A stretch of 64,000 nt of DNA from Eledone cirrhosa (lineage: Eukaryota): the NCBI GenBank assembly GCA_964016885.1, contig OZ024741.1, positions 318,308,001 through 318,372,000 on the forward strand, written 5' to 3'. Shown piece by piece: positions 10,711 through 62,720 of the stretch; position 1 is the stretch's first letter; every line of letters begins with the position of its first letter. The position numbers and the translations under genes were made by a program. The notes below the pieces were generated by a model that saw only the letters and a list, made by a program, of their open reading frames with translations, ran no database searches and was not told where the DNA came from.

Positions 10711-11669
10711 CTCTATCTTTTATTCCTTCTTCATTCCTGACACCTGCACTAACCTCTTGTCTTACAACACAACAGTCGCCACACTGCACATCACACTTTC
10801 CCAGTTATTTCATCCTTCCCTCTCTTCTATTCTTATCAACACGGTTATTACCAGTGTTAGTGCCATCTCACATGGGTCACCAATCAGTACCATATCAGTA
10901 GCCAGTGGTAAATTATGTATATACCAGTGGTAGATTATGAAGTAGGGGTGGCTGAATGGGTCGCAGCCAGGAGCCCCATGCAAGTTTTAATCTGGCCCTA
11001 TCAGTAGCACAATATGAGTGACTACAGAGACTGCTGTTATTGGTAGAAGGCTGTTGCATACTGATTGGTGTGTAGTAGCATCAATAGTATCGATACAGCA
11101 GACAGCCGATCGATCAGTCGAGCGAGAGGAATATGTGATCGGCTCACTCTCACAATTAGTATCATTCATCTATCATTTATCTTCAGATCTTTTTCCTAAT
11201 CTCTTCTATCTCATTCCCTCAACTAGTGCTGTTTTATATTGTCATAACTAAATGTATATTTATTATACATAAACATACTGTATATAGGACCATATATACA
11301 GTACATCTTTGTTCTGAATGGCAGTCATATAACTGTTTCTACTTTAGGCACAAGGCCAGCAATTACCCAGTGCATTACTGGTACTTTATTTTATCGACCC
11401 CGTAAGGATGAAAGGCAAAGTCAACCTCGGAAATGGCAGTCATATAACACCAGTTTAAAATAGAGCGTGACTAAATGTATATTTATTATACATAAACATA
11501 CTGTATATAAGACAATATACACCTTTATTCTGTATTAGTGTGGTATTGCATGATCACAGCTTACGTGAGACTAAATGTATGTTTTTTTTTATACATAAAC
11601 ATGCTGTATATAGGGCCATATACACATATATTCTTTACCATTACTGTAATCTTATATGACAACAGTGAA

Positions 11670-11950: not shown

Positions 11951-12638
11951 CTATTGCTATATACCACAACTTAACCTACATCGAACCTAAATGTTAAGTT
12001 TATTATACATAAAAACACTTAATTCCGAATTAGTGTGATATACCAACAGCTTAAAATATTCACAGCATGACTACATGTATTATACCCCGCCGAGGTTACC
12101 TTTGCCTTTCATCCATACGGGCTCGATAAAATAAAACACCAGTAATACACTGGAATAATTGCTGGCCCTGTGCCAAAAGTAGAAACAATTATATATGGGC
12201 CAGTACAGAGCAGCCGCCTGGACATTTAGCACCTTACATTAGCCCTAAAATGTGCGCCCTATTCTCCCAGTTATGTGCCCCATTCTTCCAAATAAAATAA
12301 TTTCAACTTACAATTAGGGTAAGGTGACAAACCTATTTTTTGACACTTCTTGTTCTGAGCACACTAAGAAAATTACTAAGCCTACACAGTTGAGATTCAT
12401 CCATGCTAAATCACAAGACAGGTCATAACACCATATGGCCCTCTCCCCAGTGTTGTTATGTAGCAAAGTTATTTAGTGATTGATTTTTTATCACAGATAA
12501 TTATATATACGGGCATATATAATTATACAAATTTGTATAAAACTTTGATCCTTTTAAGGTTCAGTAATGCACCTCTGAGGTCTGCACCCAGGGCGGCTGC
12601 CTATTTCACCGTAATACTAGGGCCTGTCCAGCTGCTGA

Positions 12639-17169: not shown

Positions 17170-17228
<59 letters not shown>

Positions 17229-17470
17229 TATAAGCAGTTGTGTTTAGAAGACGGTGTCGAGTGAAATTTGTAAATTGAATTAGGTTTCGCCTTACTTTTT
17301 GACTACAGAAAATAGTCTAATTGTTTGTCCGGCAAACAATAGGTGTGGGTTCGACACCCATGTGTGCTGATACACATTTTTTCAGATTCTGTGAGCTTAT
17401 ATGTCCTGTTATTAGATTACTTTCTGTATTCAAATGTATTGCGAAAGCTTCTAAATCAATTTTGAAATAG
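17229..17470. mobile_element. Diverged fold-back element with tRNA-like T arm (relative of 45889-46381)
   Basis: Abuts (TA)n. Minus strand carries GGCGAAACCTAATT..AATTTCACTCGACACCG. Plus strand carries the GTGGG-TTCGACA-CCCAT T arm and, ~80 nt later, GAAAGCTTCTAA. Confidence 0.55.
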
Positions 17471-17629
17471 ATTCTATAATATTTTGACTCACATCACTTA
17501 ATTGTTCCTATATTAGATAGTATCTAGAATAGATGAGCCAAGAGTGTAGTTTTGGTACGTGAGATGAAGAGATTATTTCATGTCACATGCTGTAGAGCAC
17601 ATTAAATTACTTCATTCTATATATGAATA

Positions 17630-20752: not shown

Positions 20753-21276
20753 ATACACACACACAAGCACACAAATAAACATACATATCTTCACTTCAAT
20801 AGAAAATCTGAACTCTGACACCCCGGCGAGCTGGCCATATTCACTGAACCAGAACATTTCTCCCAATCCCTTTTCTCTTGACCACTATCTCTCCATTGTC
20901 ATAACATTCACTATAAAGACTACAGAATAGTTTTCCAAATAAGGGCGCAAAAATGTAATGAAAACTTGTTCACGTGACAGCCAAATTTCATTTATAACCA
21001 ACCAAAAAAAAAAAGCCTTCGTGAGCCTCCTTTTTTCAAGTAAAAAGAAATTCAAACACTCATATATGAAAAAAACAACCTGTGACAACCCCCCCTCTCT
21101 TATTTGAAGAACTATTGTAACGCGAACTGGCACGAAATTTATTATAATTATTGACAAACCAATCAAATTACTTCTCGAAAAACCTGGCATTTCGAGCCAC
21201 TTTTTCCATATAAAACAAGTAACATTCAGAGACCAACCAGATGTGAGAAAAACCACAGACCCTCCATCTCAACTCA

Positions 21277-21314
21277 CCTTTTGAAAAGCAGAAGAACTGC
21301 GAAACCGGTAAAGG
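21277..21314 (+). ncRNA. Minimal type-I hammerhead, U3-A8 variant
   Basis: CCTT-TTGAAAA-GCAG aagaa CTGC-GAAA-CCGG-TA-AAGG, with intact stems I and II and a palindromic stem III. Confidence 0.8.
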
Positions 21315-21445
21315 AACCAAATAAATATATATATATTTTTTAAAAATAAGACTCCTGTTGCATTTTCGATTTCATCTCTTTTTCTTTATAATTTCACTCG
21401 TGTAGGACACCTCGGTTATTTTTCATTTTGTAAAAAAACCCTCAC

Positions 21446-21520
<75 letters not shown>

Positions 21521-27070: not shown

Positions 27071-27246
27071 TAAATATAAATATATATATTGGAATAAATG
27101 CTCTGAAATAGCGATATATATGTGAATATAGACATAGAATATTCGAAAATACTCTGTATGTTTATAATAAACATTTTGAAGACCTAATCGCTATAGAATA
27201 GAATACGTCACGTATTACAATTAGATTCTCGATAAAAGCAAGGGAA

Positions 27247-27289
27247 GTAATCTACGCGTTTCATTCTTGTTAGAAATCTTCAGGACTAC
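27247..27289 (-). ncRNA. Minimal type-I hammerhead ribozyme
   Basis: Reverse complement of 27654-27696. Confidence 0.9.
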
Positions 27290-27653
27290 ATATCCAGTGC
27301 TTTTATCGAGAATGACACAGCTAGAGACTTATAGAATACTTAGCTGTGTACAGGAACTGGTTTGAAAGAGCGGTTGCCGGTCCGGCAGAAATTAGAAATT
27401 GGAATAAATGCTCTGAAATAGCGATATATATGTGAATATAGACATAGAATATTCGAAAATACTCTGTATGTTTATAATAAACATTTTGAAGACCTAATCG
27501 CTATAGAATAGAATACGTCACGTATTACAATTAGATTATTCCAATTTCTAATTTCTGCCGGACCGGCAACCGCTCTTTCAAACCAGTTCCTGTACACAGC
27601 TAAGTATTCTATAAGTCTCTAGCTGTGTCATTCTCGATAAAAGCACTGGATAT

Positions 27654-27696
27654 GTAGTCCTGAAGATTTCTAACAAGAATGAAACGCGTAGATTAC
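27654..27696 (+). ncRNA. Minimal type-I hammerhead ribozyme
   Basis: GTAGTC-CTGAAGA-tTTCT aaca AGAAt-GAAA-CGCG-TA-GATTAC: canonical core, 6-bp stem I, palindromic stem III. Confidence 0.92.
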
Positions 27697-27963
27697 TTCC
27701 CTTGCTTTTATCGAGAATCTAATTGTAATACGTGACGTATTCTATTCTATAGCGATTAGGTCTTCAAAATGTTTATTATAAACATACAGAGTATTTTCGA
27801 ATATTCTATGTCTATATTCACATATATATCGCTATTTCAGAGCATTTATTCCAATTTCTAATTTCTGCCGGACCGGCAACCGCTCTTTCAAACCAGTTCC
27901 TGTACACAGCTAAGTATTCTATAAGTCTCTAGCTGTGTCATTCTCGATAAAAGCACTGGATAT

Positions 27964-28006
27964 GTAGTCCTGAAGATTTCTAACAAGAATGAAACGCGTA
28001 GATTAC
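27964..28006 (+). ncRNA. Minimal type-I hammerhead ribozyme
   Basis: Identical to 27654-27696, offset +310 bp. Confidence 0.92.
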
Positions 28007-28273
28007 TTCCCTTGCTTTTATCGAGAATCTAATTGTAATACGTGACGTATTCTATTCTATAGCGATTAGGTCTTCAAAATGTTTATTATAAACATACAGA
28101 GTATTTTCGAATATTCTATGTCTATATTCACATATATATCGCTATTTCAGAGCATTTATTCCAATTTCTAATTTCTACCGGACCGGCAACCGCTCTTTCA
28201 AACCAGTTCCTGTACACAGCTAAGTATTCTATAAGTCTCTAGCTGTGTCATTCTCGATAAAAGCACTGGATAT

Positions 28274-28316
28274 GTAGTCCTGAAGATTTCTAACAAGAAT
28301 GAAACGCGTAGATTAC
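28274..28316 (+). ncRNA. Minimal type-I hammerhead ribozyme
   Basis: Identical to 27654-27696, offset +620 bp. Confidence 0.92.
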
Positions 28317-28428
28317 TTCCCTTGCTTTTATCGAGAATCTAATTGTAATACGTGACGTATTCTATTCTATAGCGATTAGGTCTTCAAAATGTTTATTATA
28401 AACATACAGAGTATTTTCGAATATTCTA

Positions 28429-32321: not shown

Positions 32322-32878
<557 letters not shown>

Positions 32879-35904: not shown

Positions 35905-36092
35905 TAGGATTGGCAGTATCGGTAGAGGATCGGACGCCATGCTTTGCAGCAAAGAGTTAAGGCCCTTTATGGTCTGAGTTCAAATCCCGCCGAGGTTAAC
36001 TTTGCCTTTCATCCTTACGGGGTCGATAAAATAAAGTACAAGTAATACACTGGGATAATTGCTGGCCTTGTGCCAAAAGTAGAAACAATTAT
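35905..36092 (+). mobile_element. Near full-length tRNA-derived SINE
   Basis: TGGCAGTATCGG A-box, GAGTTCAAATCC B-box, CTTTCATCCTTACGGGGTCGATAAAATAAAG body, AGAAACAATTAT tail. Other copies at 11333-11430, 12085-12190, 12745-12850, 13085-13200, 16095-16435, 36800-36900 and 50490-50580. Confidence 0.88.
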
Positions 36093-37755
36093 AATAATAT
36101 TTGAATTACCGGTTTCTGTCATGAATTGAAAAAAATTGGTAGATTCTAAACTGGGTTGAGCTGTTCGGTTTGCTGGTTCACTACCCATACAATAGTCTCT
36201 CCATATTCTTGGTACTCCTTTACTTGTCAACAATATCTTTGTATTCTTAGGATAAAAATAACATTAGTAACGCCAACAAAGTTTTCAAAGACCTTAGCGT
36301 GAAAACATGTGACTTAATGACTAAATGTGTTTCACTCATGAATCGTCGGTTCGATTTTTGGTCCGGGCGACACACTGTGTTCTGCGTGATTATGTCGGTG
36401 TGAAGGTGGTTCTCGGATGTTTTAGTGATATGATCTCCAGTCCTATCATGAAATACAACAGATAAAATTGACGATCAGCAGCAAGATGTGGGGCCTATAG
36501 TAATGATATGCTGTGGCTGCGAAGAAGTGTGTCTGCATCTCCATTAATTTCTCGCAAGATACGAAGAATGTTTTAAGCAAGAAATAATCCAGTCACGTGT
36601 CATAAAACCTAGTTGATTGTCCTACAACAGACCGTAGGTCATCCCCACCTCCCAGTAGATTGTTTACGGACTCATCATTTTGAAAGCATCTGTTCTCGTC
36701 TAATCAGATACGTTAAGTAGCACCGAACGTAGTCAGCATTTCGATGTGTAATCTCTTGGGAAAGTTAGGTACTTACAAAAGAGTCATTCGAGTCCTGGAT
36801 ATTTGCTCCAGCTCACGGCACCTTCAGTTCAAATCCCGCCAAGGCCGACCCACTTTACCTTTTATTCGTTTAAGGGTCGATAATATAGAAGGTACCAGTG
36901 TAGTAATGGTGAGGACCTCTCTCTATCCGGGTGCCTTAATGTTTTGCTAGGTTAGGGTACAAAGGACCAGAGGGTGTCTGTCTTGGCTCGCAACTTCATG
37001 TGTACCCAAAGCCTCCAGTGATAACCCTTTAAACATTAAAATATTTATGTAATTTGAACCAAACAGATCCATCCATTTTATACACCTTCGGTTGTGACAC
37101 AACAATAACAATCACAATAACAATTACACTTCTTGTTTTATAACTGACGTCTACCGGGTTGGTTGGTTTTCATTTTATTCTTGCTGTTGTTTTTGATGAT
37201 GTTTTCATCAAATGGATCTGATTGGCAAAAATTAATTTAAAATTTGAAGCTTTAAACAGCTGTAACAATTTTATTGCGAGTGGCAGCTGTAGATGGAATT
37301 ATTTAATGTATTTAGAGAAGCTTTCAAATTTGTTGAAAAGGCCTTGCTACTTGTTAAAGTTCCTTAACCGTTCCCGCCCACCATATTTCATAATCAACTA
37401 CTCAATAATTGAAAGAGTCACCAACGCCTTACTCTCTAACTTATATCCAGAGTATCGTTCTTTCATGAAACATTGAAAACATCGACCATCGATGAGATAT
37501 AAAAGTTTTGATAGCCACTTAGGAAACTGTACTGAATCTACTGTATATTTATTGACCATTAGGTAACTACCTCCACCCACATCACTAATTTTCTTTTCAT
37601 TGAAGAAAATTGATGGCTGACATCAATACACATAAGGGGCCATAACTTCCAATAACCTAATAACGCTGTCTGCTACTCCTTTACATTTATCTCGTCCACT
37701 CCTACCTATTCGACGACTACTACTACTACTACTACCACCACCACCACCACCACTG

Positions 37756-39963: not shown

Positions 39964-40051
<88 letters not shown>

Positions 40052-40398
40052 CAGATTAAAGTTTAAACAAAGAATCGCTGCTTTCACCCTTTACAGGATC
40101 TTTCGGATTTTAGTTTTCACATTTATTATTACTATCTATATCTATATCTCTATATATATCTATCTACACACACACATATATAAATATATATATAGTATTA
40201 AGGGTATTATTTATGGTTATGTATGTAATAAAACCTTTAATGGTAATATATTATATATACAAACCTTAAATAGTGAAAGATAGTCATTAATTAATCCTAT
40301 TACCAGTAAGATAAATAGCTCAATGTAATAACATCAGTTGTTTTACAGAGCAGTTATATAGAGATTACAATAATCAAAGTTCAGTTTAAGTCATTTAT

Positions 40399-40447
40399 TT
40401 GCTTACAATTGTTTCCTCCAAGCCGAGGTTTGGATTCTTCGGAGCAA
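40399..40447 (-). ncRNA. Type-I hammerhead, U4C core variant
   Basis: Reverse complement of 45576-45624. Confidence 0.78.
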
Positions 40448-40618
40448 CTATTTACTGATCTATAACATACTTGACCTCCTTTTCAACCCAAGAGACACAT
40501 AAAACATATGCGCATATTGATCAACAGTGGGGTGACACTCATCAAATGATATAGCATGGCAATTTACATGTAAAGGTTACAGGATAAAAATAAAAATAAA
40601 AATAAAAATAAAAATAAA

Positions 40619-40649
<31 letters not shown>

Positions 40650-41234
40650 TAAAAATAAAAATAAAAATAAAAGCAAGAATGAAAATAAAGATAAACATGA
40701 AGCGTTGGCAGTCTATGAAGATAAAGCAAGAGGAAAGCTTAGAGTAGTCAGTGCATGAAACAATCTCACGTGTAGCATGCACGCGTGTCTTATTTATACA
40801 CGATTAGAGTGCGTCAGAATGATATTTGCAGGGTCAGGCAGTTGAAGCAGGCAATCGATCTTATTATGTGGGCTGAATTATTAAGTCATTTATTCTCATA
40901 CATCTGTATGATATACGGTCTCGGATGCAGGGAAATTCCGAAGAATCCAAACCTCGGCTTGGAGGAAACAATTGTAAGCAAATAAATGACTTAAACTGAA
41001 CTTTGATTATTGTAATCTCTATATAACTGCTCTGTAAAACAACTGATGTTATTACATTGAGCTATTTATCTTACTGGTAATAGGATAGTAATTAATGACT
41101 ATCTTTCACTATTTAAGGTTTGTATATATAATATATTACCATTAAAGGTTTTATTACATACATAACCATAAATAATACCCTTAATACTAATAACTGCTCC
41201 ATTTTGTTGAGCTGATATACCATAAATTACCAGC

Positions 41235-43717
41235 ATGTTGATCAAAGACCAACTCCCTATGTCAACCAAGAGCATACCTTTACCAACCAAAAATACATAT
41301 GAAAAGTTGTTGATCAACAGTGTAAACTCCTTTATCAATAGAGTGAGATGGAGGACATTCCATTATGATAGAAACAAATCTGGCAAGGATAATAACACCA
41401 ACAAATTTGACTCCTTCGGCTTTAAAACATTTAGAAGCCCCCCTCATAACACACTACTAAACCACTTCGAAAACGACCTAATTAAACTAGTTAAAAACAT
41501 TAAATACAAAAAACACCATAATAAAAACAACACCTTCTTAAACAAACTTAGTACCTCTATTAATGACTTCAAAACTAGTAGTAAAATTTGTGTACATGCC
41601 GACAAAACTAATAACATATACAGCCTAGATTATAATACGTATAGAAAGTTTATATATAATGAACTACATAAAAGCTACAAGAAAACCACTATGAAAAACT
41701 TAGAAGATATTAATATGGAAGGCTATAATATAGTATCCAAACTAGGGCTCCAGAGACATACACAACTTTACACCCCAAACCCCCCTAGATTCTCTCTGAA
41801 GGACCATAAGGTAGACTTCATTAGCAACCCCTCGATTAGACTAATCTGCCCCTCCAGGTCTGACATTGGCATTATCAGTAAAAAAATTCTAGACAAAATC
41901 ATCCCACAGATTAAACACAAGATTTACCTTAAACAATGGGGAAATACGGGTGAAGTGATTGAATGGTTCAAAAATATCATAGATAACAAGGATAACAAAT
42001 TTATTCAATTTGATATCAACTCTTACTACACCTCTATTTCCCCTATCCTACTAAATAAGGCACTTATAATGGCCATGGACAATAGTGACTTGACTAGACC
42101 CCAGATTGATGTCATACTTGCGGCCCGTAAAACAATAATCACCTTTGAGGACCAATTATGGACCCGCAAGGATACGCAAAACAACTTCGACATTACTATG
42201 GGGTCTAGTGACTCGGCGCAGGTCACTGATTTAGTTGGCCTATACTTACTTAACCAAATCCACAGGGAACTTCCGTACCTCAGCGGTGGTTTGTATCGCG
42301 ACGATGCACTTCTACTTATAGACTATAAAAAATTCAATATAGAAAGGGCTAGAAAACTATTGCACAAAACATTCAAAAACTTTAACCTTAGTATTACCAT
42401 GGACAAAAACACCAAAAACGTCAACTTCCTAGACGCCACACTCTACCTAGACTCAATGATATATGCACCTTTCCACAAACCTAATGAAAAACTCATCTAC
42501 GTAGATACCAAGTCTAACCACCCTAAATCTATATTGAACTCTATCTCTAAGGGAGTATCTAATAGAATCTCTAATCTATCCTATGACATAAACACATTTA
42601 ATAATAACTCTCAGTATTATAATCAGGCATTAGCTAGATCAGGCCATAATACAGGGATAGAGTTCCTACCTACAAAAACACATAGCTACAGCATCATTTC
42701 ACACAACATGTCCATGGGAAAATTTAACAATAGGAATAGCAACTGCACACACACTAATAGGGATTGTAACAACAAAAGTAACCCGCACCACAGAAATGAC
42801 CATAGGAACATTAAAGGAAACAAATCACCAGACATAAAAAACAGAAATAGAAGAAGAAATAATACATTTTTCAACCCTCCTTTCAATTTAAACGTCTCCA
42901 CCAACCTACCTAGGGCTTTCTTCTTACTACTAGATAAACACTTCCCATCCGGCCACAGGTACCACGGCCTTTTAAACAAAAACACTATTAAGATCTCTTA
43001 CTCTACTACGCCTAACTTAGCATACCACATAGCTAGTACAAATAAAAGAAAAATTAATTCTTACTTCCAACAAACTAAATCACAACAGTCGATAAACCTT
43101 CAAAATAACATTCAAAATACAGTCAAAGTAACATTATAGCAAATAACCGTAATATCAATGGAAATGATAGGAATAGCACTAGTGTAAACATTAACGCCGC
43201 GTACCACAACCCACATAACCATAACCCTATAGCTAACATCCAAACTTCTACACAGCATAGTAACCGGCAGACTAGCACCCAGAGTAATTGTAACTGTAGA
43301 TCAAGTAGAACCTGCCCTTTAGATAAAAAATGCTTAACCAAGGATATCATATACTCATGTACAGTCACAACTAACAACTCTTCTGAAACCTATATAGGCT
43401 CTACTTCTAACTGCTTCAAAACTAGATACAATTCGCACCTCCACTCTTTCAAAAAACACAGTCTAGCCAACTCCACTTCACTATCTAGCTACATACACTA
43501 TCTAAAAACTAAAAATAAAATATATACACTTAAATGGGAAGCGGTAGGTAGTGCAACATCGTACAAACCACCTAATAAATTTTGTAACCTCTGTCTACTA
43601 GAGACCCATACTATCATCTTCTCTAAACATAATCTCCTTAATAAAAAATCAGAAGTGTTCGCAACTTGCCAACACCGCTTCCGACACTCGTTCCAAAACT
43701 TTAAACCCTATATATAA
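41235..43717 (+). pseudogene. PLE RT + GIY-YIG endonuclease ORF with a single frameshift near 43120
   Basis: ADKT, LKDHK, FDINSYYTSI, FDITMGSSDSA, GLYRDD, NFLD, FNPPF. After the frameshift: CNCRSSRTCPLDKKCL..IIY..YIG..FKTRY..CNLCLLE..LLNKKSE..CQH. Clade assignment is from recalled motifs. Confidence 0.92.
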
Positions 43718-45575
43718 TAATGTCAGACTGGAACCGGCACCACCCCTAGCAATTAACATCAGTAGCTCACCTTACACCTCACATCCACACCCATTTGTAT
43801 ACTCTAAAGATAATACTGACAGCATTTTAGTACCACCTACCCTGGAAATACCCCCTTGTACCTCTAATTCTGATATCTCGACCGTGGACTACTTAATCTG
43901 CATTGCACAAATATAAGATTAGTATAAACCGGGGACACGGTACTGGTTGCGATAACATAGTCCTGTGCATGGATTCCCACCAAGAGATAGATTGATGATT
44001 AGATAGATAATCGTATTGTTATGTGAATATATACTGTAAACGATCGGTTCAATGAATTATGCACAGGAGATGCATGAGTTAGGAGCCTCTGTGTTGCCTG
44101 GTGACCTGACCGGCACCTTTTGACGAGAGAACCGGCCACCGGACCACCCTGGTGAATTTACCGGGGATGCAGTCATACCACGACCTGAATCTCGCCGGGA
44201 GTCATGTATGATAATAAGACCATTACTGATAGTGAGACCCATGTAATTAATTATGTAGTCTGACTCTTCTTATGGATTGGCCGGGTGTGGCACCCCATGT
44301 TGGATTGTGGTCATCATAATACGAACTCCTTTAGTACTTGTTACTGGACTCCACTCTATCTTGTGGATGGGATACCCGATCTATATGTGGGATGTGAGTT
44401 TATGTATTGCTTTGTGGCCAGACAGGTGCCCAGGTATGAGAGATTTAATCTCCAGATTGTAATCATCTTGATGTGAACTCCTTTAGTACCTATTAATAGA
44501 CTCCACTCTAACTTGTAGATGTGATACTTAATTGATTTATATATGAGATGGGGGTTGTCTATTCCTTGATGACCAGACTAGTGCCTTTATATGTGAAATT
44601 AGATCTCCGGACCATATCGAAGATTTACCGGAGATTCAGACATGCAATGACCCGGAGCCTACCGGGGGGCATATATAATAGTCGGACCATACCAGGTCCT
44701 ACTGTTATATTACATTTGCATGGAACAGTGACTTGAGAGTCTGACTCCTCTTATAGAATGTTCAGATAGGACACCCCTTAATGTATGGTAATCATCTTAA
44801 TATATACACCCTTGTACTTCTTATTGGACAACTCTCTAACCTATAATTGGGAAACATACTCTAGAAATTAGTTATAACTTCATATGATAGGCACGTATTT
44901 GAATCACCATTAATGTAGTTTAGGATAGTAATCTAACTAAGATAACTAGCTAGTTACCTCCCCTTACGCGTTAATTCCCCTTAGTCATTCAGACACTTCC
45001 GGAATCTATATGCTGGACCATCGCGAATTATACGATAGACACGTGTTCTATATATTGCGTCTCATGGATTATGTGAGTGGTGGTGTGAGCGAAGATACAA
45101 TAAGGTTTATAGTATGTTGAAAGTTTCTGATATTTTGGTGTTTCCCTGCATCCGAGACCGTATATCATACAGATGTATGAGAATAAATGACTTAATAATT
45201 CAGCCCACATAATAAGATCGATTGCCTGCTTCAACTGCCTGACCCTGCAAATATCATTCTGACGCACTCTAATCATGTATAAATAAGACACGCGTGCATG
45301 CTACACGTGAGATTGTTTCATGCACTGACTACTCTAAGCTTTCCTCTTGCTTTATCTTCATAGACTGCCAACGCTTCATGTTTATCTTTATTTTCATTCT
45401 TGCTTTTATTTTTATTTTTATTTTTATTTTTATTTTTATCCTGTAACCTTTACATGTAAATTGCCATGCTATATCATTTGATGAGTGTCACCCCACTGTT
45501 GATCAATATGCGCATATGTTTTATGTGTCTCTTGGGTTGAAAAGGAGGTCAAGTATGTTATAGATCAGTAAATAG

Positions 45576-45624
45576 TTGCTCCGAAGAATCCAAACCTCGG
45601 CTTGGAGGAAACAATTGTAAGCAA
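45576..45624 (+). ncRNA. Type-I hammerhead, U4C core variant
   Basis: TTGCT-CCGAAGA-aTCCAA acctcggc TTGGAg-GAAA-CAATTG-TA-AGCAA. A third copy lacking the 5' strand of stem I lies at 40937-40981. Confidence 0.78.
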
Positions 45625-45658
45625 ATAAATGACTTAAACTGAACTTTGATTATTGTAA

Positions 45659-45769
<111 letters not shown>

Positions 45770-45794
45770 ACATATATATATATATTTGTGTGTG

Positions 45795-45844
<50 letters not shown>

Positions 45845-45850
45845 TATTTA

Positions 45851-45889
<39 letters not shown>

Positions 45890-45922
45890 TAGAAATTATA
45901 AGCTTTCACCGTATTTTTGTGT

Positions 45923-45993
45923 TGCCGTACATGGGAGTCGAACCCACATCTTTGGTTATCCAGACCACTGTGCTACCATTACACCAATACACA
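45923..45993 (-). ncRNA. tRNA-like cloverleaf (not a credible functional tRNA gene)
   Basis: D arm GTGT-aatggta-GCAC, anticodon arm TGGT-ctGGAta-ACCA, T arm GTGGG-ttcgact-CCCAT, acceptor 5 of 7 pairs. A and B boxes intact. Confidence 0.8.
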
Positions 45994-46145
45994 TCCCGTC
46001 TCCTTCCATTCAAATTAGAAGCTATGAACTTAGCAAGTGAATGATAAACAAGCAAATTATAAATGTAAACATGTAAGTATGTTTTTGAAACGGTGCGCGA
46101 GTTTGAAAATTAGAAATTAGAAATTAGAAGCTTTCACCGTATTTT

Positions 46146-46216
46146 AGTGTATTGGTGTAATGGTAGCACAGTGGTCTGGATAACCAAAGATGTGGGTTCG
46201 ACTCCCATGTACGGCA
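46146..46216 (+). ncRNA. tRNA-like cloverleaf (second, inverted copy)
   Basis: Same sequence as 45923-45993, followed 10 nt later by TTTTT. Confidence 0.8.
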
Positions 46217-46381
46217 ACACTCATCTTTTTCCATTTCTCCGAGGGTTATAAACCCCACTATCAGGCTAGAAATTTCTTTAGTCTAAAATACGGTGAAAGC
46301 TTATAATTTCTAATTTCTAATTTTCAAACTCGCGCACCGTTTCAAAAACATAGTTACATGTTTACATTTATAATTTGCTTG

Positions 46382-46415
<34 letters not shown>

Positions 46416-46425
46416 TATGTGTGTG

Positions 46426-46456
<31 letters not shown>

Positions 46457-46467
46457 GTATATATATA

Positions 46468-46539
<72 letters not shown>

Positions 46540-46557
46540 TATATATTTATGTATATA

Positions 46558-46638
<81 letters not shown>

Positions 46639-46654
46639 TTATTTATATATATAT

Positions 46655-52973: not shown

Positions 52974-53015
<42 letters not shown>

Positions 53016-53173
53016 GGGTGCTCTGGAATAGCGATATATATATGAATGTATATATAGTGTATTTTGCAATACACTGTATGCTTAATTAAAAGCATTTTGA
53101 AGACCTTACGCTATTGTTTTAGAGTAGTGACAGTCTTACTTACTTTAAATTTTCAGCAAACAGGGGGAGATAA

Positions 53174-53218
53174 AGCTGACAGAGCTCTGTTTCGTACTAT
53201 TTGGTACTTATCAAAGCT
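53174..53218 (-). ncRNA. Type-I hammerhead, U3-A8 variant
   Basis: AGCT-TTGATAA-GTAC caaata GTAC-GAAA-CAGAGCTCTG-TC-AGCT. Confidence 0.82.
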
Positions 53219-53471
53219 AAGTACTCCACCTGTTTGCTGAAAATCATGAATGTTTGATTCTTATAGAATTCTAGTAATAATCAGGAACTGATTATACAGA
53301 ACGGTTGCACTATATATATACATTCATATATATATCGCTATTTCAGAGCACCAATTCTAATTTTCAATTTCTGCTTGACCGGCAACCGCGCTGTATAAGC
53401 AGTTCCTGATTATTACTAGAATTCTATAAGAATCAAACATTCATGATTTTCAGCAAACAGGTGGAGTACTT

Positions 53472-53516
53472 AGCTTTGATAAATACCAAATAGTACGAAA
53501 CAGAGCTCTGTCAGCT
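53472..53516 (+). ncRNA. Type-I hammerhead, U3-A8 variant
   Basis: As 53174-53218, with one stem II substitution. Confidence 0.78.
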
Positions 53517-53676
53517 TTACCTCCCCTGTTTGCTGAAAATTTAAAGTAAGTGAGACTGTCACTAAAGTAAGTGAGACTGTCACTAAAGTAAGTGAGACTG
53601 TCACTACTCTAGCGTAAGGTCTTCAAAATGCTTTTAATTAAGCATACAGTGTATTGCAAAATACACTATATATACA

Positions 53677-54247: not shown

Positions 54248-55109
54248 TAATAAAGACTTTTGATGTATTGAAGGCTTCTTTGGTTTATTTTCATAATTTT
54301 TCGGCTCTGTTTAATTACATTGAGCTATATCTTTACTGTCATTTCTATAATATGAAGAGGGTGTTTAACTCCAACACACTCTAGTATTTTAATTCTTATA
54401 TATATATATATATATTAAAATAACAGATTAAAGTTTAAGCAAAGAATAGCTGCTTTCATCCTTAACGGGATCTTATATATATATTTATATAGTGCCAAGA
54501 GTTTTCGAAGAATACATCAAGAATAGATATGCCTGAAAATAACTAAACTATCAGATATAGAATATCTGTCCTATTCTGACTGAAGTTTGAAACCTTAGGT
54601 AGCATGCATTTGTGCTGAGATCTTATTCATACACACACACACTAACACGCACACAGGCACACGCACACATACTCACACATACACGCTCACATATATATAT
54701 ATTATTTGATTAACGACAATGTCAACAAGTTTTGATAACGCCTATGAATCAAGATATAAATAGTATAACTAATATACATATATAAATATATATATGTAGC
54801 ATGTATTTATATATATATGACTGTGTGGCGTACTTACGTATAGCTCGTCCGGCTGTAGTTGGTTCGTGTCCCCCACCCCATTCTGTCTTGGCTTCTGAAC
54901 GACATAGTAGTAGCGGGGTATGTAGGCGCAAAGGTTAGGGTAGAAGAAAAGACAAACTACTATGTGATAGCATCTAGACAGTGAAGATCGTAGGCAACTT
55001 CTACTTACCTAAAAGACAAAAAGAAAAAAAAAGAAAGAAATTAGAGTTATTATTCAGGATAGATTAAAAAGAGGCGGGAAAGGCAGCGCATATAATAATT
55101 ACAGTATGT

Positions 55110-55305
55110 AATAATTGTTTCTACTTTTGGCACAAGGCCAGCAATTAACCAGTACATTACTGGTATTTTATTTTATCGACGCCGTAAGGATGAAAGGCAA
55201 AGTTAACCGCGATGGGATTTGATCTCAGATCATAAAGGGCCGTAGCTCTATGCTGCAAAGCATGGCATCCGACCATCTACCGATACTGCCAATCCACCGC
55301 CCTTC
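55110..55305 (-). mobile_element. tRNA-derived SINE
   Basis: Reverse complement of the 35905-36092 family. Confidence 0.88.
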
Positions 55306-55332: not shown

Positions 55333-56508
55333 GATTTCTTTATAGGCCACAAGGGCTGACATCAAGAAAAACATTACAGACTGCACAGGACGGTACGACG
55401 TGGGTTTTGTGCGTGTAAAGATTTTTATTATTTATATAATATAATAAAAGAAAAAGACATAGAAACATATATATATATAAACAATAAAAATGAAAATTGA
55501 AACAATTAAAAATTCCCCAATAGGAGGGAAACCTCCGAGCGTTACTCGTGGTGAAAACCACACAAAAGACCACGGCCACCTTGACCACCAGGGCAATCGC
55601 TCTCTCTCAATTTTTCCATTTCTCAAAATACAGACGTATATTCAGAGCGGTCCCATTCACTCGGACCATTCCCGCTACATTCACCCACCTTTCAATAAAC
55701 ATGCTAGAAGGCAGCATTTGCCTCTCCACCCTGATGTGAAACTTGAAAAAGTTAATTAGGGTTTCGCCGAAGAGGAAAGTGTCTGTCTTTAACCCTTTTA
55801 ACCTTGTCCACCGCTCAATCTCTTTCGCCATGGCCACCAGGCAGATGAAAACCGCCTGCCCTTCCTCCTTGAAGGAAGACGGCGAGACCATCTGCACAAT
55901 GGACTCAGTCGATAACCGGATCAGTCCTACACGCGACAGCAACTGTTCGACATAGTTCCACAAGTCAGCAATGCTCGGGCACTGAACGAGTGCGTGCACG
56001 ACGGTTTCGTCGCTCTGCACGCGTCTCGGACAGGCTCGACTGACGGCACTTCCGTGCCTGTAGAGCTTATCTCGAACCGGCAGCGCTCCCCGGTAGCACT
56101 GCCAGGCCAGGGATTTTTGGAAGTTATCCATAGGCCCTGGGCTGAAAGTTCTCCGGAAGAGAGCAAACAGCTGATCTTCTTCGACGTCCAGGATCTCTCC
56201 GAGACGATCGTCGCTCTTCCCCTCCACTAGTCCTCTATAGAACGTCGAGGTGGATGTTCCACCGATACTGGTGCCCAGCTGGCAGAGGGCGGTGAGCACC
56301 GGGAGACATTCCAGTTTCCAAGCGCTATCCCACGGTCTTTTCCTGACCCAGGACTGCAGCTCCGTCAAGGAGACGAGATGTGGGAAAACGTGCCTGGCGA
56401 ACGTCGACCACACCTGTTCACCATCAATGAAGCACCAGAGATGTCGCAGCCTCAGCGCATGTTTGCGCATCATCAGCCATGGCATGCCCAGTCCTCCACG
56501 CAACAGGT
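55333..56508 (-). mobile_element. 5'-truncated Tx1-clade LINE in (TAA)n
   Basis: ORF 55607-56503: GGLGMP, MDNFQKSLAW, ALPVRDKL, zinc finger CPRR..ETVVHALVQC. (TAA)n on both sides. Confidence 0.9.
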
Positions 56509-56789
56509 GATAATAATAATAATAATAATGATTTCATTTATTGGCCACAAGGGCCGACATATAGGGGACAATACAAAAGACTAGAACATTGGGGTTTTAC
56601 AGAAAAATCGAGTAAACAATATGAATAAACAAAGTAACAATAAAGTAACAAGAAAATTACAACAAGAAAACATTCCCCAATAGGGGGATGACCACCTAGG
56701 GTTCGCTCAGATACCCCACCAGTGATGAACGACTCGACGCTTCGAGATCACCCTGGAAGGGCACCCCTCTCCTCTTCAAATTTACCTAC

Positions 56790-59700
56790 CTACAGCCGCA
56801 TGACCAGTGTAGGCCCACTCACACGGGCAATTCTCGCCACATTCACCCACCTTTCAGCAAATGTACTGGGGGGCAGCGCTTCTCTCTCCACCCTCACCTT
56901 CCTTTCCAAGTGAAACTTCAAAAAGTTGATGAGGGATTGGCCGAAGAGAAAAGTGTCTGTCTTCAGTCCTTTCAACCTCGTCCACCATACAACTTCTTTC
57001 GCTACTGCCACCAGACAGAGGAAAATTGCCTGCCCTCCCTGGCCAAAAGAAGGCGGCGGATCGATCTTCACTATGGACTCGGCCGATAGCCGGATCCGTT
57101 CTACACGCGACAACAGCTGTTCAACATAACTCCACAAGTCAGTAATGCACGGACACTGGACGAGTGCGTGCAGAACGGTTTCGTCGCTCTGCGCGCATCT
57201 CGGGCAGGTCCGTCTGACAGCACTTCCGTGCCTGTAGAGTTTATCTCGAACCGGCAATTCCCCCCGGTAGCACTGCCAAGCGAGGGATTTTTGGAAATTA
57301 TCCATCGACCCCGGCTCGAAAGTCCTCCGGTACAGACTGGTTAGTTCGACTTCGTTGACTCCCAGAGCCTCTCCTAGAGTCGTCGCACTTGCCCACCACT
57401 AATCCTCTATAGAACTCGAGAGTGGAAGTTCCACTGACCGCATTGCCCGCCTGGTAGGGGGCAGTGAGTGCCTGGCAACATTCCAGATGCCAGTCACCCA
57501 GTCTCGGTCTCTTCTTGACCCAGGACTGCAACTCAGTCAAAGAAACGAGCTGCGGAAAGGCCCGTCTGACAAACGGCGACCAAACCTGTTCACCGTTTCG
57601 GCAGAATATCTGGAGATGCCGCAGCCTCAGCGCGTGCCTGCGCATCATTAGCCACGGCATGCCCAGCCATCCACGTAGAGGGTGCTGGCAGCAGATGGAC
57701 CGCCTCACCAGCGGAACCTGACCCCTCCACAAGAATTTGAAGAGGACCCGCTCCAAGATGGCGAGGCGCGAACCGGGGCAAGGGACGACAGTCAGACGGT
57801 AGTAGATGACGGACGCGATGTACGCGTTCGCCACCTCCGCCCGACTTTCAGTGATAGCTTCATCCCAGCCCATTTCTGGGTGAGACTGACTACCCTGCCA
57901 GTCACCTTGTCCCAATTTTTATCCACCTGGAGGTCTGGCCCGAACCAAACCCCTAGCAACTTTACCGGTCCGTCCGTCCAGCGCCTAACGACGCTGTTGG
58001 ACGACATGGACTTGCCTCTCCAGGTGCCGAGTTGCAAGCCCACTGACTTTTCCGGGTTAAGTTTTGCTCCCGTCCACCTTTCATATTCCTCCAATAAGTT
58101 GCCGACCACCTCGATTTCTGAGGTGTCCGACACCATCACGGTGATGTCGTCCACATAAGCCGACACAGCCTTTCCGCGTCCCGGTTCGAGCGGGATGCCC
58201 TGCAACAGCTCCAGCTTCCGCAGTAAAGGCTCGAGAGTCAATACTTACAGAAGGGAGGAGAGAGGGCACCCTTGACGGACCGATCGGGAGACCTGAAACG
58301 GTTCCGAGAGGTGGCCATTAATTTTGACCATCGAGCAGGTGCCGCTGTGCATTGCAGCGATCCAGCTTCTGAAGACGGGGCCGAAGCCAGCCGCCTTGAG
58401 GACAGCCTCCAGGTACCGATGGTCGACCCTATCGAATGCTTTCGATTGATCTAAATTGATCAGAGCCCCACCGAAGCCAGGTTTACACCCTACCCTCTCT
58501 ATGATGTATCGCATTAGGTGGAGGTTGTCGTGTATGGACCTGGTTGGGATTGCGCAAGTTTGCGCCTCCCCAACCAAATCTCCGACGACAAACGCCAACC
58601 TCTTCGCTAACACCTTGGCCAAAATCTTAAACTCTGTGTTGAGCAGAGTTATGGGCCTGAAGTTGTCTAATGTGTCCCTCTTGTTCTGGTCTTTCCTTAT
58701 CAGCGCCACTACGCCCCGGCTCACAGAACTGGGAATACTCCCGTTTTGCTGACAGTTGCAGTAGAGAGCTTCGAGGGGATTGGAGAACAAGTCTGGCATA
58801 TTTACGTAAAGCTCGTAGGGCAGACCATCCAAACCGGGTGACTTGCGCCTCATGCAGCCGACGACAAGGGCATCCTGAATCTCGGCTGAAGTAATTGGTC
58901 TTTCGCAGCGCCCAGCGTCAGCCGTCGAGAGTTGCGGCAAGCCATCGAGGTAGGGACTGAAGTCCGCCACCATCTCTGACCCGCCACTTCCCCCGAAAAA
59001 CCGAGCAAAACGTTGGCGAAAGGCCTCACACATCCTCTTGGAATCGCTCAGCTCGTGCCCGTCTCGGTCCGTCAAAGACCGAATCGTGGTTTTATTACCA
59101 CGCTGCGCCTCTGCCACGCGGGCCCATCGAACAGCTTTGGTTCCCTCGTTTCTTAGAGCACGCGCCTTAGCACTGACAATGCAACCTTCGTGTTTCGCAT
59201 TGAAGAAATGGTTTAATGCCATTCTCGCCGCTAGCACATCAGTTGCAATACCACTACCAATAGCCTCGTCTAACTTATCTACCAACTCCCCCTCCTTTCT
59301 ATTTTTCTCTAATGCTACTTCTTTGCTAAACTCTAACGACATTACTCTAATCTCTCTTTTGAGAGCCCCCTACCATCTATTGTTGACGACTCCCCCTGTC
59401 AACTTTTTCTTAACTAAATTGTTGACCTGGTCCCTGTAAGCCTTACGTGCCGGAAATGACATGTTTAGCTTCCAGTAACCAGGTCCTAACCTACGCGTCT
59501 TATCTAGGTCGACCATACAGGTCACAAACTTGTGATCTGAATAAGCGACCGTTTCAAAACGTGGACAGCTTACACTATTTCTGTCTATTTTCCTAATGAA
59601 TATCCTGTCTATATACGATCTAGATGACCCTATGCGGTTAGCCCAGGTCCACACTGGCGCATTAGGGAAATCTAGTCGGTACTTGTCAGACAGTTGGAAC

Positions 59701-60218
59701 TGGCTGATCAGGTTCTTGAGGCTTTTGCACCCGCCTCCCCCGCTCCTATCGGATACTCCCACACAGTCCCAGCGTGCGTCTAAGATGCCGTTCCAGTCCC
59801 CCGCTAACAGTAAAGGGCGAGACGTAGCCAGAAAGGCTTCCAGGTGTCTAAAGAAGTCCGGCCGTCCTTCCCCAGTAGGAGCATAGACGGCCACCAGTCT
59901 AAAGGCACCACCTTCATTATTGTTCACGTCCAGGACCACCAACTTCCCGTCCGGGTCCCGGAAGATCGACCTTACCTCGAGATCCAGGCCTTTCCTAAAC
60001 AGCACTTCCACCCCGCCTCCCATTCCCGCCTGGCTAACAGATGCAAAGATCTGATAGTCGTCGAAAATGGGGGCTAGTGCGCGCGTGTCGGAAATCCTGG
60101 TCTCGCTGACTGCAATTACATCCATTTCTATAGACCTGAGGTCGTTGAGCAGGTGACCCTGCTTCCAGGACGATCCCAGGCCTCGAACATTTAAACATCC
60201 TACTCTTAATACGGCCAT
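56790..60218 (-). pseudogene. Tx1 ORF2: APE endonuclease, RT, C-terminal zinc finger (disrupted)
   Basis: LNVRGL, VSET, VYAP, GDWN, SYIDR, SDH, WKLN; KSPGLDGLP, FRPITLLN, LDQSKAFDRV, VRQGCPLS, YVDD; CPRC..ETVLHALVQC. Several stops and frameshifts. Confidence 0.93.
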
Positions 60219-60249
60219 GTTGGCAGGTTAAACAGAGAGAGAGGAAGGT

Positions 60250-62226: not shown

Positions 62227-62459
62227 GTTTTTTTTCTTCGTAAATTTTTTAACATGTAAAAAAAAAGTTCAAATATTCGGGCCAAAAGGCCCAAATATTA
62301 TACTTTCCCCTTCACGGGGCAAAGTCTAAGGGCTTATATCCCTTACACAACAAGAAATATTTAACAACAAATAATTTTAACAGGCAAATAAAGCGACTTA
62401 CTGGGAGCGAGCAAAATACGTCCGCTTAGACCAATAATAATAATAATAATAATAATAAT

Positions 62460-62720
62460 AATTGTTTCTATTTTTGGAACAAGGCCAACAATTACCAAGT
62501 ACATTACTGGTACTTTATTTTATCGACCCCGTAAGGATGAAAGGCAAAGTTAACCTCGGCGGGATTTGAACTCAGATCATAAAGGGACGTAACTCTATGC
62601 TTCAAAGCATGGCGCCCGACCCTCTACCGTTACTGCCAATCCACCGTGGTTTCTGATTTAGGCACAAGGCCAACAATTTTGTGGGAAGGGAAAAGTCGAT
62701 TAAATCGACCCCAGTGCATT
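62460..62720 (-). mobile_element. tRNA-derived SINE plus tail of a second copy
   Basis: Same family as 35905-36092. Its (ATT)n tail directly abuts the Tx1 5' end. Confidence 0.88.

Follow-up and report, generated by a model that had tools for sequence, protein, structure and literature searches.

A short fold-back at positions 45889-46381 of the 64-kb stretch of DNA analysed here (the window) carries a tRNA-like cloverleaf on both strands, and raises the question of what kind of element this is and whether enzymes that process tRNAs take part in making its copies. Our preferred answer, which we regard as probable, is that the locus is a young insertion of a high-copy, noncoding monomer of ~290 nt. 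This monomer contains an internal, non-decoding tRNA-like module and lacks a canonical hammerhead, and a Penelope-like reverse transcriptase (RT) and endonuclease probably acts in trans to copy it into (TA)n.

An internal tRNA-like module in a permuted fold-back

The ~290-nt monomer consists of four segments in the order T-A-B-C (T, 46147-46220; A, 46221-46282; B, 46283-46381; C, 46047-45993 on the minus strand). The plus arm reads T-A-B-(TA)n, and the minus arm reads B-C-T, misses A, and resumes with 30 nt from the start of B (nominally B1-30) before (TA)n. This layout upholds the view, put forward in an earlier note on this DNA, that the cloverleaf lies inside a permuted monomer whose fold-back ends in (TA)n. 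Because the two arms differ at only 2 of 99 positions of B, the insertion is judged young. Target-site duplications are unreadable inside (TA)n at this insertion, which counts against our preferred reading. The features of the locus are as follows.

45659-45888: left target, a (TC)n/(TA)n/(TG)n microsatellite directly 3′ of the 3′ pLTR of a neighbouring Penelope-like element (PLE)
45888-45917, minus strand: 30-nt piece of B (B3-32), resembling a PLE “tail”, 100% identical to 46285-46314, with 1-nt microhomology to (TA)n
45919-45992, minus strand: segment T, minus-arm cloverleaf (ARAGORN, Rfam, identity), behind which segment A (63-64 nt) is skipped
45993-46047, minus strand: segment C, with C-to-T joints in all four sequencing runs; its 3′ part, 46011-45999, is the leader
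46048-46147, minus strand: segment B of the minus arm, with 2 differences from plus-arm B
46146-46148: head-to-head inversion junction with 1-nt microhomology
46147-46220, plus strand: segment T, plus-arm cloverleaf (ARAGORN, Rfam tRNA), with anticodon loop 46176-46182 and discriminator 46216
46221-46282, plus strand: segment A, with a T5 run (46226-46230) followed by C, a trailer, and predicted hairpins at 46243-46255 and 46263-46284
46283-46381, plus strand: segment B of the plus arm, joining (TA)n
46382-46649: right target, a (TA)n microsatellite

Both cloverleaves are called by ARAGORN (45923-45995 on the minus strand and 46145-46218 on the plus strand) with anticodon GGA, and the module scores 38.1 bits against the Rfam tRNA model, whose gathering score is 29. 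The 74-nt copies in the two arms are 100% identical. The cloverleaf proper spans 71 nt, from +1 at 46146 to the discriminator at 46216, as the earlier description of a ~71-nt cloverleaf on both strands had it. In the plus arm we take the A box to lie at about 46153-46163 and the B box at about 46195-46205, by the box consensus.

The family was gauged with the query 45993-46282, which holds each segment once, in four of 15 sequencing runs, of which X13 and X14 are RAD libraries and are therefore biased in sampling. Matches number 2402 among 12.5 million reads in X13, 1929 among 12.8 million in X14, and 1944 contigs in X1 and 6 in X4 (organism B), counts that are not copy numbers. This is a large, high-copy family that is also present in a second organism. 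Segment A is its deepest-covered part in the reads. All four runs contain both C-to-T and A-to-B joints, and the order A-B-C-T can be read in a single 276-nt contig from organism B. Apparent molecule ends in the reads were rejected as biology, as most fall at or beside AATT sites and are read as RAD enzyme ends.

Upstream of the cloverleaf, 706 reads continue into C-like sequence at a local depth of about 970 in X13 (among the 19 of 372 loose ends listed), as do 620 at a depth of about 820 in X14 (among the ends listed). Agreement with the upstream consensus is 0.73-0.97 in these reads and lower, 0.68-0.78, in the X1 contigs. Since segment C leads into the cloverleaf in most reads, the module occupies an internal position in most molecules and does not form a SINE head. 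The earlier note had named copies that mostly begin at the tRNA 5′ end as the mark of an ordinary SINE, and the reads do not show that pattern. The plus arm alone does begin at the cloverleaf 5′ end and shows a tRNA head, a body and a simple-repeat tail, as would be expected of an ordinary SINE that has a tRNA head and underwent an inversion of the twin-priming type. This explanation is largely refuted and, in our judgement, has hardly any chance of being right, given the C segment upstream in most reads, the permuted 3′ ends (B32 and B99), the overlap of the two arms in sequence and the A-B-C-T order in organism B. Assignment to SINE2, in which most copies begin with a tRNA head, was likewise rejected on the C-like upstream sequence. 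As to a LINE-derived tail, the element has no match in the rest of the window beyond the family member described next.

A search of the window revealed one further, diverged member.

17228-17480: second family member (nhmmer E 4.7e-8), with (TA)n, inverted A-end plus B, a junction near 17313, then T-A-B

In this copy T begins at the D arm, and the inverted arm has a score of 69, reached by 0 of 300 shuffles. It too is a TA-flanked fold-back with the order T-A-B, and it is broken at other places, within the D arm and within A; this repetition of the layout with other breakpoints counts in favour of our preferred reading. There is no third copy in the 64-kb window, and family pattern scans of metagenome, viral and prokaryote contigs returned 0 loci. 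Tandem units are evident as B-C-T-B in the window and as joints in reads; these are partial tandems only, with no long array seen directly. Head-to-tail unit order and high abundance would also suit a tRNA-containing satellite, or another repeat that spreads at the DNA level through recombination or rolling-circle copying, with the fold-backs as by-products of microsatellite instability. We consider such an origin very unlikely, since both window copies are dispersed, TA-flanked fold-backs like their hammerhead-bearing neighbours, and since a 30-nt tail and many distinct junctions are present.

To judge from its isotype signals, the cloverleaf is not a decoding tRNA, as it has neither an isotype-consistent body nor a conserved anticodon loop. 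The GGA anticodon (Ser) is paired with a 5-nt variable loop, and serine tRNAs are expected to carry a long variable arm. Within the anticodon loop, position 33 differs in 331 of 1010 X13 reads and position 34 in 124 of 1007, and the acceptor stem of this copy has only five pairs, its top two being broken. These traits bear out an earlier doubt that the GGA-bearing module decodes. The acceptor end that had been called His-like does exist in this copy, but it represents a minority allele: 46214 G>T is carried by 1051 of 1463 reads in X13 and 950 of 1197 in X14. Combined with the commonest upstream consensus, and if both lie on the same molecules, this majority allele would complete a 7-bp acceptor stem. 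The read data suggest that the family keeps the cloverleaf fold; speaking against this are minority variants that break pairs of the D and T stems (76/666, 79/1042 and 113/1046, among the 40 of 118 variants listed). The anticodon stems of the two window copies show one compensatory change, which with n = 2 sequences is not significant (243 of 500 shuffles).

Absence of a canonical hammerhead and a possible vestige

A pattern scan for CTGANGA-N6-30-GAAA finds no match in 45889-46381 and 15 in the whole window, where 1.5 are expected (0 of 100 shuffles reach this number). An Rfam scan of the element gives seven matches at E ≤ 10, none of them to a ribozyme, so that the lack of a CTGANGA core remarked on earlier stands. 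The miRNA and snoRNA matches in that scan are far under their gathering scores and were set aside as by-products of the fold-back. A helix-based hammerhead scan is also blank for the element; this counts for little because the same scan misses real neighbours such as 27660.

One region at the border of A and B nevertheless resembles parts of a hammerhead.

46267-46312, plus strand: possible hammerhead vestige, with an 8-bp helix-I-like pairing (46267-46274 with 46305-46312), GAAA and a palindromic AAGCTT

Its core has three mismatches to CUGANGA (two in the minus arm of the 17-kb copy), and helix II is not conserved. The region therefore fails as a hammerhead by sequence, and may be a remnant of one. 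The mismatched core positions are regarded as invariant in hammerheads. Could it instead be a cryptic but active variant that works as a dimer, leaving the tRNA module to serve as promoter only, as in the schistosome element Sm-alpha? All four aligned rows share GAAA and three of the four keep AAGCTT, the 8-bp pairing is present, and the outward polarity matches that of the neighbours' hammerheads; PLE hammerheads are moreover described as variable in the available part of PMC4209133. We nonetheless hold this to be quite unlikely in view of the core mismatches, the absence of a conserved helix II or an Rfam match, and a competing hairpin into which the same strand is predicted to fold.

The window holds several other elements. 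A young fold-back at 27078-28426, made of 310-nt tandem units that each have an intact hammerhead core, and with (TA)n ends, is an apparent canonical non-LTR retrozyme. The fold-back at 53012-53670 is a relative of the 27-kb unit, which it matches at about 80% over ~100 nt, and no hammerhead core was found in it; it is possibly a second ribozyme-less family. At 40051-45658 lies a PLE that has pLTRs in both direct and inverted orientation and whose RT and C-terminal GIY-YIG domains are split over two frames; in it, a hammerhead-like core, CCGAAGA, occurs at 40938, 45581 and 40442 (minus strand). Fold-backs of one related family at 32384-32739 and 21239-21449 carry a CTGAAAA core variant followed by a 4-bp helix, GAAA and a palindromic CCGG. 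A LINE with AP endonuclease, RT and zf-RVT occupies 55610-60227 on the minus strand and includes an internal 870-bp duplication (76% identity). A dispersed repeat of ~100-200 nt is present in at least five copies of 87-94% identity (11327-11430, 12086-12194, 35907-36098, 55092-55299 and 62440-62646).

Probable mobilisation by a PLE and the question of tRNA enzymes

PLE insertions are marked by a partial tandem, an inverted 5′-truncated copy, a 30-40-bp tail and a (TA)n target, according to the available part of PMC8557442. The element here has the inverted 5′-truncated copy, the partial tandem, a 30-nt tail and a microsatellite target. Four neighbouring fold-backs (at 27, 30, 48 and 54 kb) carry outward-facing CTGANGA cores on both arms, with the same polarity as the cloverleaf in this element. 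The PLE-type layout and the geometry of these neighbours lend support to the earlier characterization of the element as a PLE-dependent, non-autonomous, permuted monomer.

Open reading frames for RT and GIY-YIG domains are present in the window. Named relatives of the window's PLE proteins are molluscan and mostly octopod, with identities of 40-42% and 57-59% in Argonauta and 65-67% over short parts in Octopus; one top named match is bivalve, at 34%. These relatives hint weakly at the group to which the host belongs. A “Naiad-like” reading of the open reading frame at 41226 was rejected because its GIY-YIG domain is C-terminal. As for a specific partner, none was found in the window, which counts against our preferred reading: compared with 11 pLTR or fold-back segments nearby, the A-end plus B segment matched none significantly. 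Profile matches to the elements at 27 kb and 53 kb did not reach threshold (E 0.48-4), and the best sub-threshold matches lie mostly inside these two elements. In a shuffle test, neither the resemblance of B to the 27-kb retrozyme nor that to the tail at 40051-40194 held up (55/300 and 298/300). The left arms at 45889, 27089 and 53012 all end in TTCYAA before (TA)n, a post hoc observation with n = 3, and these ends may mark a common PLE partner. The same three joins sit just before a common AATTTCTAATTT-like motif.

The earlier note had placed both breakpoints of the minus arm close to the sites where RNase P and RNase Z would cut. The inversion junction is indeed near the cloverleaf 5′ end, but with its 1-nt microhomology it falls 1-2 nt inside the cloverleaf, off the RNase P bond (46145/46146). 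Likewise, some 60 nt just past the cloverleaf 3′ end are skipped (46221-46284, replaced by one A), but the skip begins 4 nt beyond the RNase Z bond (46216/46217), and no CCA is found at the cloverleaf 3′ end there. On its other side, each of the two breaks joins the start of B (46283-46285). This position is the 3′ foot of an 8-bp hairpin predicted at 46263-46284; another junction, 46145-46226, was also counted at this foot.

Ten other fold-back junctions were tallied, comprising nine from reads or contigs (among the 15 of 25 joints listed) and one from the 17-kb copy, some of them placed by eye from the letters between the two sides. The tally leaves out the discovery locus, normal unit joints (including 46142-46282 and 46151-46278), an uninterpretable row (46152-46211) and five deletions in the same sense, including one with its end at 46149, at a distance of 3 nt from the P site. 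Neither breakpoint of the discovery locus appears in the 15 of 25 joints listed. None of the ten junctions falls within 3 nt of the P site. Three fall within 3 nt of the Z site (P 0.03-0.13), an excess that is not significant and that counts against our preferred reading, and five fall within 46206-46219 (P 0.006-0.08), an interval picked post hoc. This 3′-side cluster would fit RNase Z cleavage, RT stalling at the foot of the T arm and acceptor stem, or fold-back at the palindromes CATG and GTAC equally well.

These data bear on the proposal that RNase Z, RNase P or both cut a multimeric RNA at the cloverleaf to provide unit-length or circular templates for a PLE RT. The breaks of the discovery locus, 1-2 nt from one bond and 4 nt from the other, point in this direction, as do the three arms that start within 3 nt of the Z bond, the full acceptor stem that the majority alleles would give if on the same molecules, and a read depth greater over A than over T. 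On the other side, the P site is missed by all ten junctions, the passage from C to T is intact in most reads, and no exact excision joint (C to 46217) occurs among the 15 of 25 joints listed. Moreover, CCA is absent, the breaks of the 17-kb copy lie within its D arm and A, the cluster at 46206-46219 coincides with the two palindromes and the 3′ foot of stems, and the tally is biased by RAD sampling near AATT. We regard such cutting as unlikely, and for RNase P no junction other than that of the discovery locus lends support. The description of the element as a tRNA-processed analogue of a retrozyme is thus not borne out by the junctions. Equally doubtful is the broader proposal of a class of PLE parasites that have no ribozyme and whose captured tRNA module both drives Pol III transcription and recruits host RNase Z/P to cut multimers, replacing a hammerhead whose remnant lies adjacent; if true, host tRNA enzymes would replace a ribozyme in a mobile element.

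Under our preferred reading, copying by a PLE, the A and B boxes would act as a Pol III promoter, and transcription would run past the weak T5-C stop and on into the following unit, a scheme that has been proposed for Sm-alpha, to yield RNA longer than one monomer; alternatively, a longer transcript would supply multimeric or circular RNA. The T5 run lies 10 nt 3′ of the discriminator and is followed by C, extending to T6 in the 17-kb copy and to T6-T8 in some reads. Such runs could stop Pol III, which is a point against this reading; in mollusc SINEs, an internal T4-5 followed by C has been argued to permit read-through (PMC4758252, available part). Between the trailer and the leader, which forms the end of C, a 13-bp helix is possible (reached by 21 of 2000 shuffles), and this pairing would require an RNA longer than the terminated Pol III product. 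In the reads, the upstream consensi vary within the leader mainly as A or G opposite U, and a third group diverges further upstream. Folds of whole arms are not more stable than those of shuffles (z -0.10 and +1.45), which also counts against our reading. TA-like microhomologies would serve to prime two cDNAs, one on each of the opposite target strands; these would extend across unit borders and be joined head to head. Breaks would arise mostly at points where the RT runs into a stem at its 3′ foot (the hairpin ending at 46284, and the T arm and acceptor stem at 46206-46219), not at RNase P or Z cuts. The family itself may have originated from a retrozyme whose hammerhead decayed after capture of a tRNA or a SINE head.

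Comparison with known systems

The sources cited below were available in part, and the comparisons are limited accordingly. Non-LTR retrozymes are defined by a hammerhead (PMC7229834; bioRxiv 10.64898/2026.07.22.740005; PMC4209133). Animal representatives resemble the element in monomer size, partial tandem arrangement, permuted copies, lack of coding capacity and association with PLEs (PMC7229834), and its ~290-nt noncoding monomer in head-to-tail repeats falls within their range of ~170-400 nt. Their units each carry a type I hammerhead, which the element, known here from DNA alone, lacks by sequence; it has an internal tRNA module. The term “tRNA” does not occur in the retrozyme preprint (bioRxiv 10.64898/2026.07.22.740005), as searched by term.

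Endonuclease-bearing (EN+) PLEs, including the hammerhead-less Naiads and the non-autonomous Chlamys (MRC1), share with the element an inverted truncated copy, a partial tandem, a 30-40-bp tail, a (TA)n target and mobility without a canonical hammerhead (PMC8557442). The element differs from them in having no open reading frame and in carrying a tRNA module, and no 3′ end shared with an autonomous partner was found in the window. It bears on whether PLE RTs require hammerhead-made ends, a question left open in the available part of PMC8557442, and a short, young, high-copy unit offers a small substrate for studying the twin-ended insertion of PLEs. Families of this kind also falsely raise tRNA gene counts in annotation.

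Sm-alpha of Schistosoma mansoni carries a Pol III promoter derived from tRNA-Gln-TTG, internal or 3′ in the processed monomer (PMC2770079, PMC6765202, PMC8490949). Compared by description, schistosome Sm-alpha/Sj-alpha and the family here are alike as high-copy, ~300-nt tandem noncoding units with a tRNA-derived internal module; here, too, an A/B-box module lies inside a tandem unit, with promoter activity predicted. Sm-alpha has an active type I hammerhead, whereas the sequence of our family has no canonical core, and TA-targeted fold-backs set the family apart from Sm-alpha. Sm-alpha appears to be the nearest precedent, one whose ribozyme the element lacks. In layout the element appears retrozyme- and Sm-alpha-like, with the missing ribozyme standing in the way of membership.

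A tRNA module combined with a PLE-type fold-back in the absence of a ribozyme was not described in the literature searched; Repbase, Dfam and SINEBase, which may catalogue the family, lie outside that search. Helenus, Cassandra and Ajax (TRIMp3; PMC10886601) likewise hold a small-RNA-derived Pol III module inside a non-autonomous repeat, not at a SINE head; in Helenus a tRNA-like promoter sits within an LTR. They are of LTR type, with two LTRs, a PBS, a PPT and a 4-5-bp target-site duplication, whereas the element here is inverted and permuted. By analogy, the element would be the PLE counterpart of this group: SINEs use LINEs, Helenus and Cassandra use LTR elements, and a ribozyme-free, tRNA-bearing passenger of PLEs would fill a third slot.
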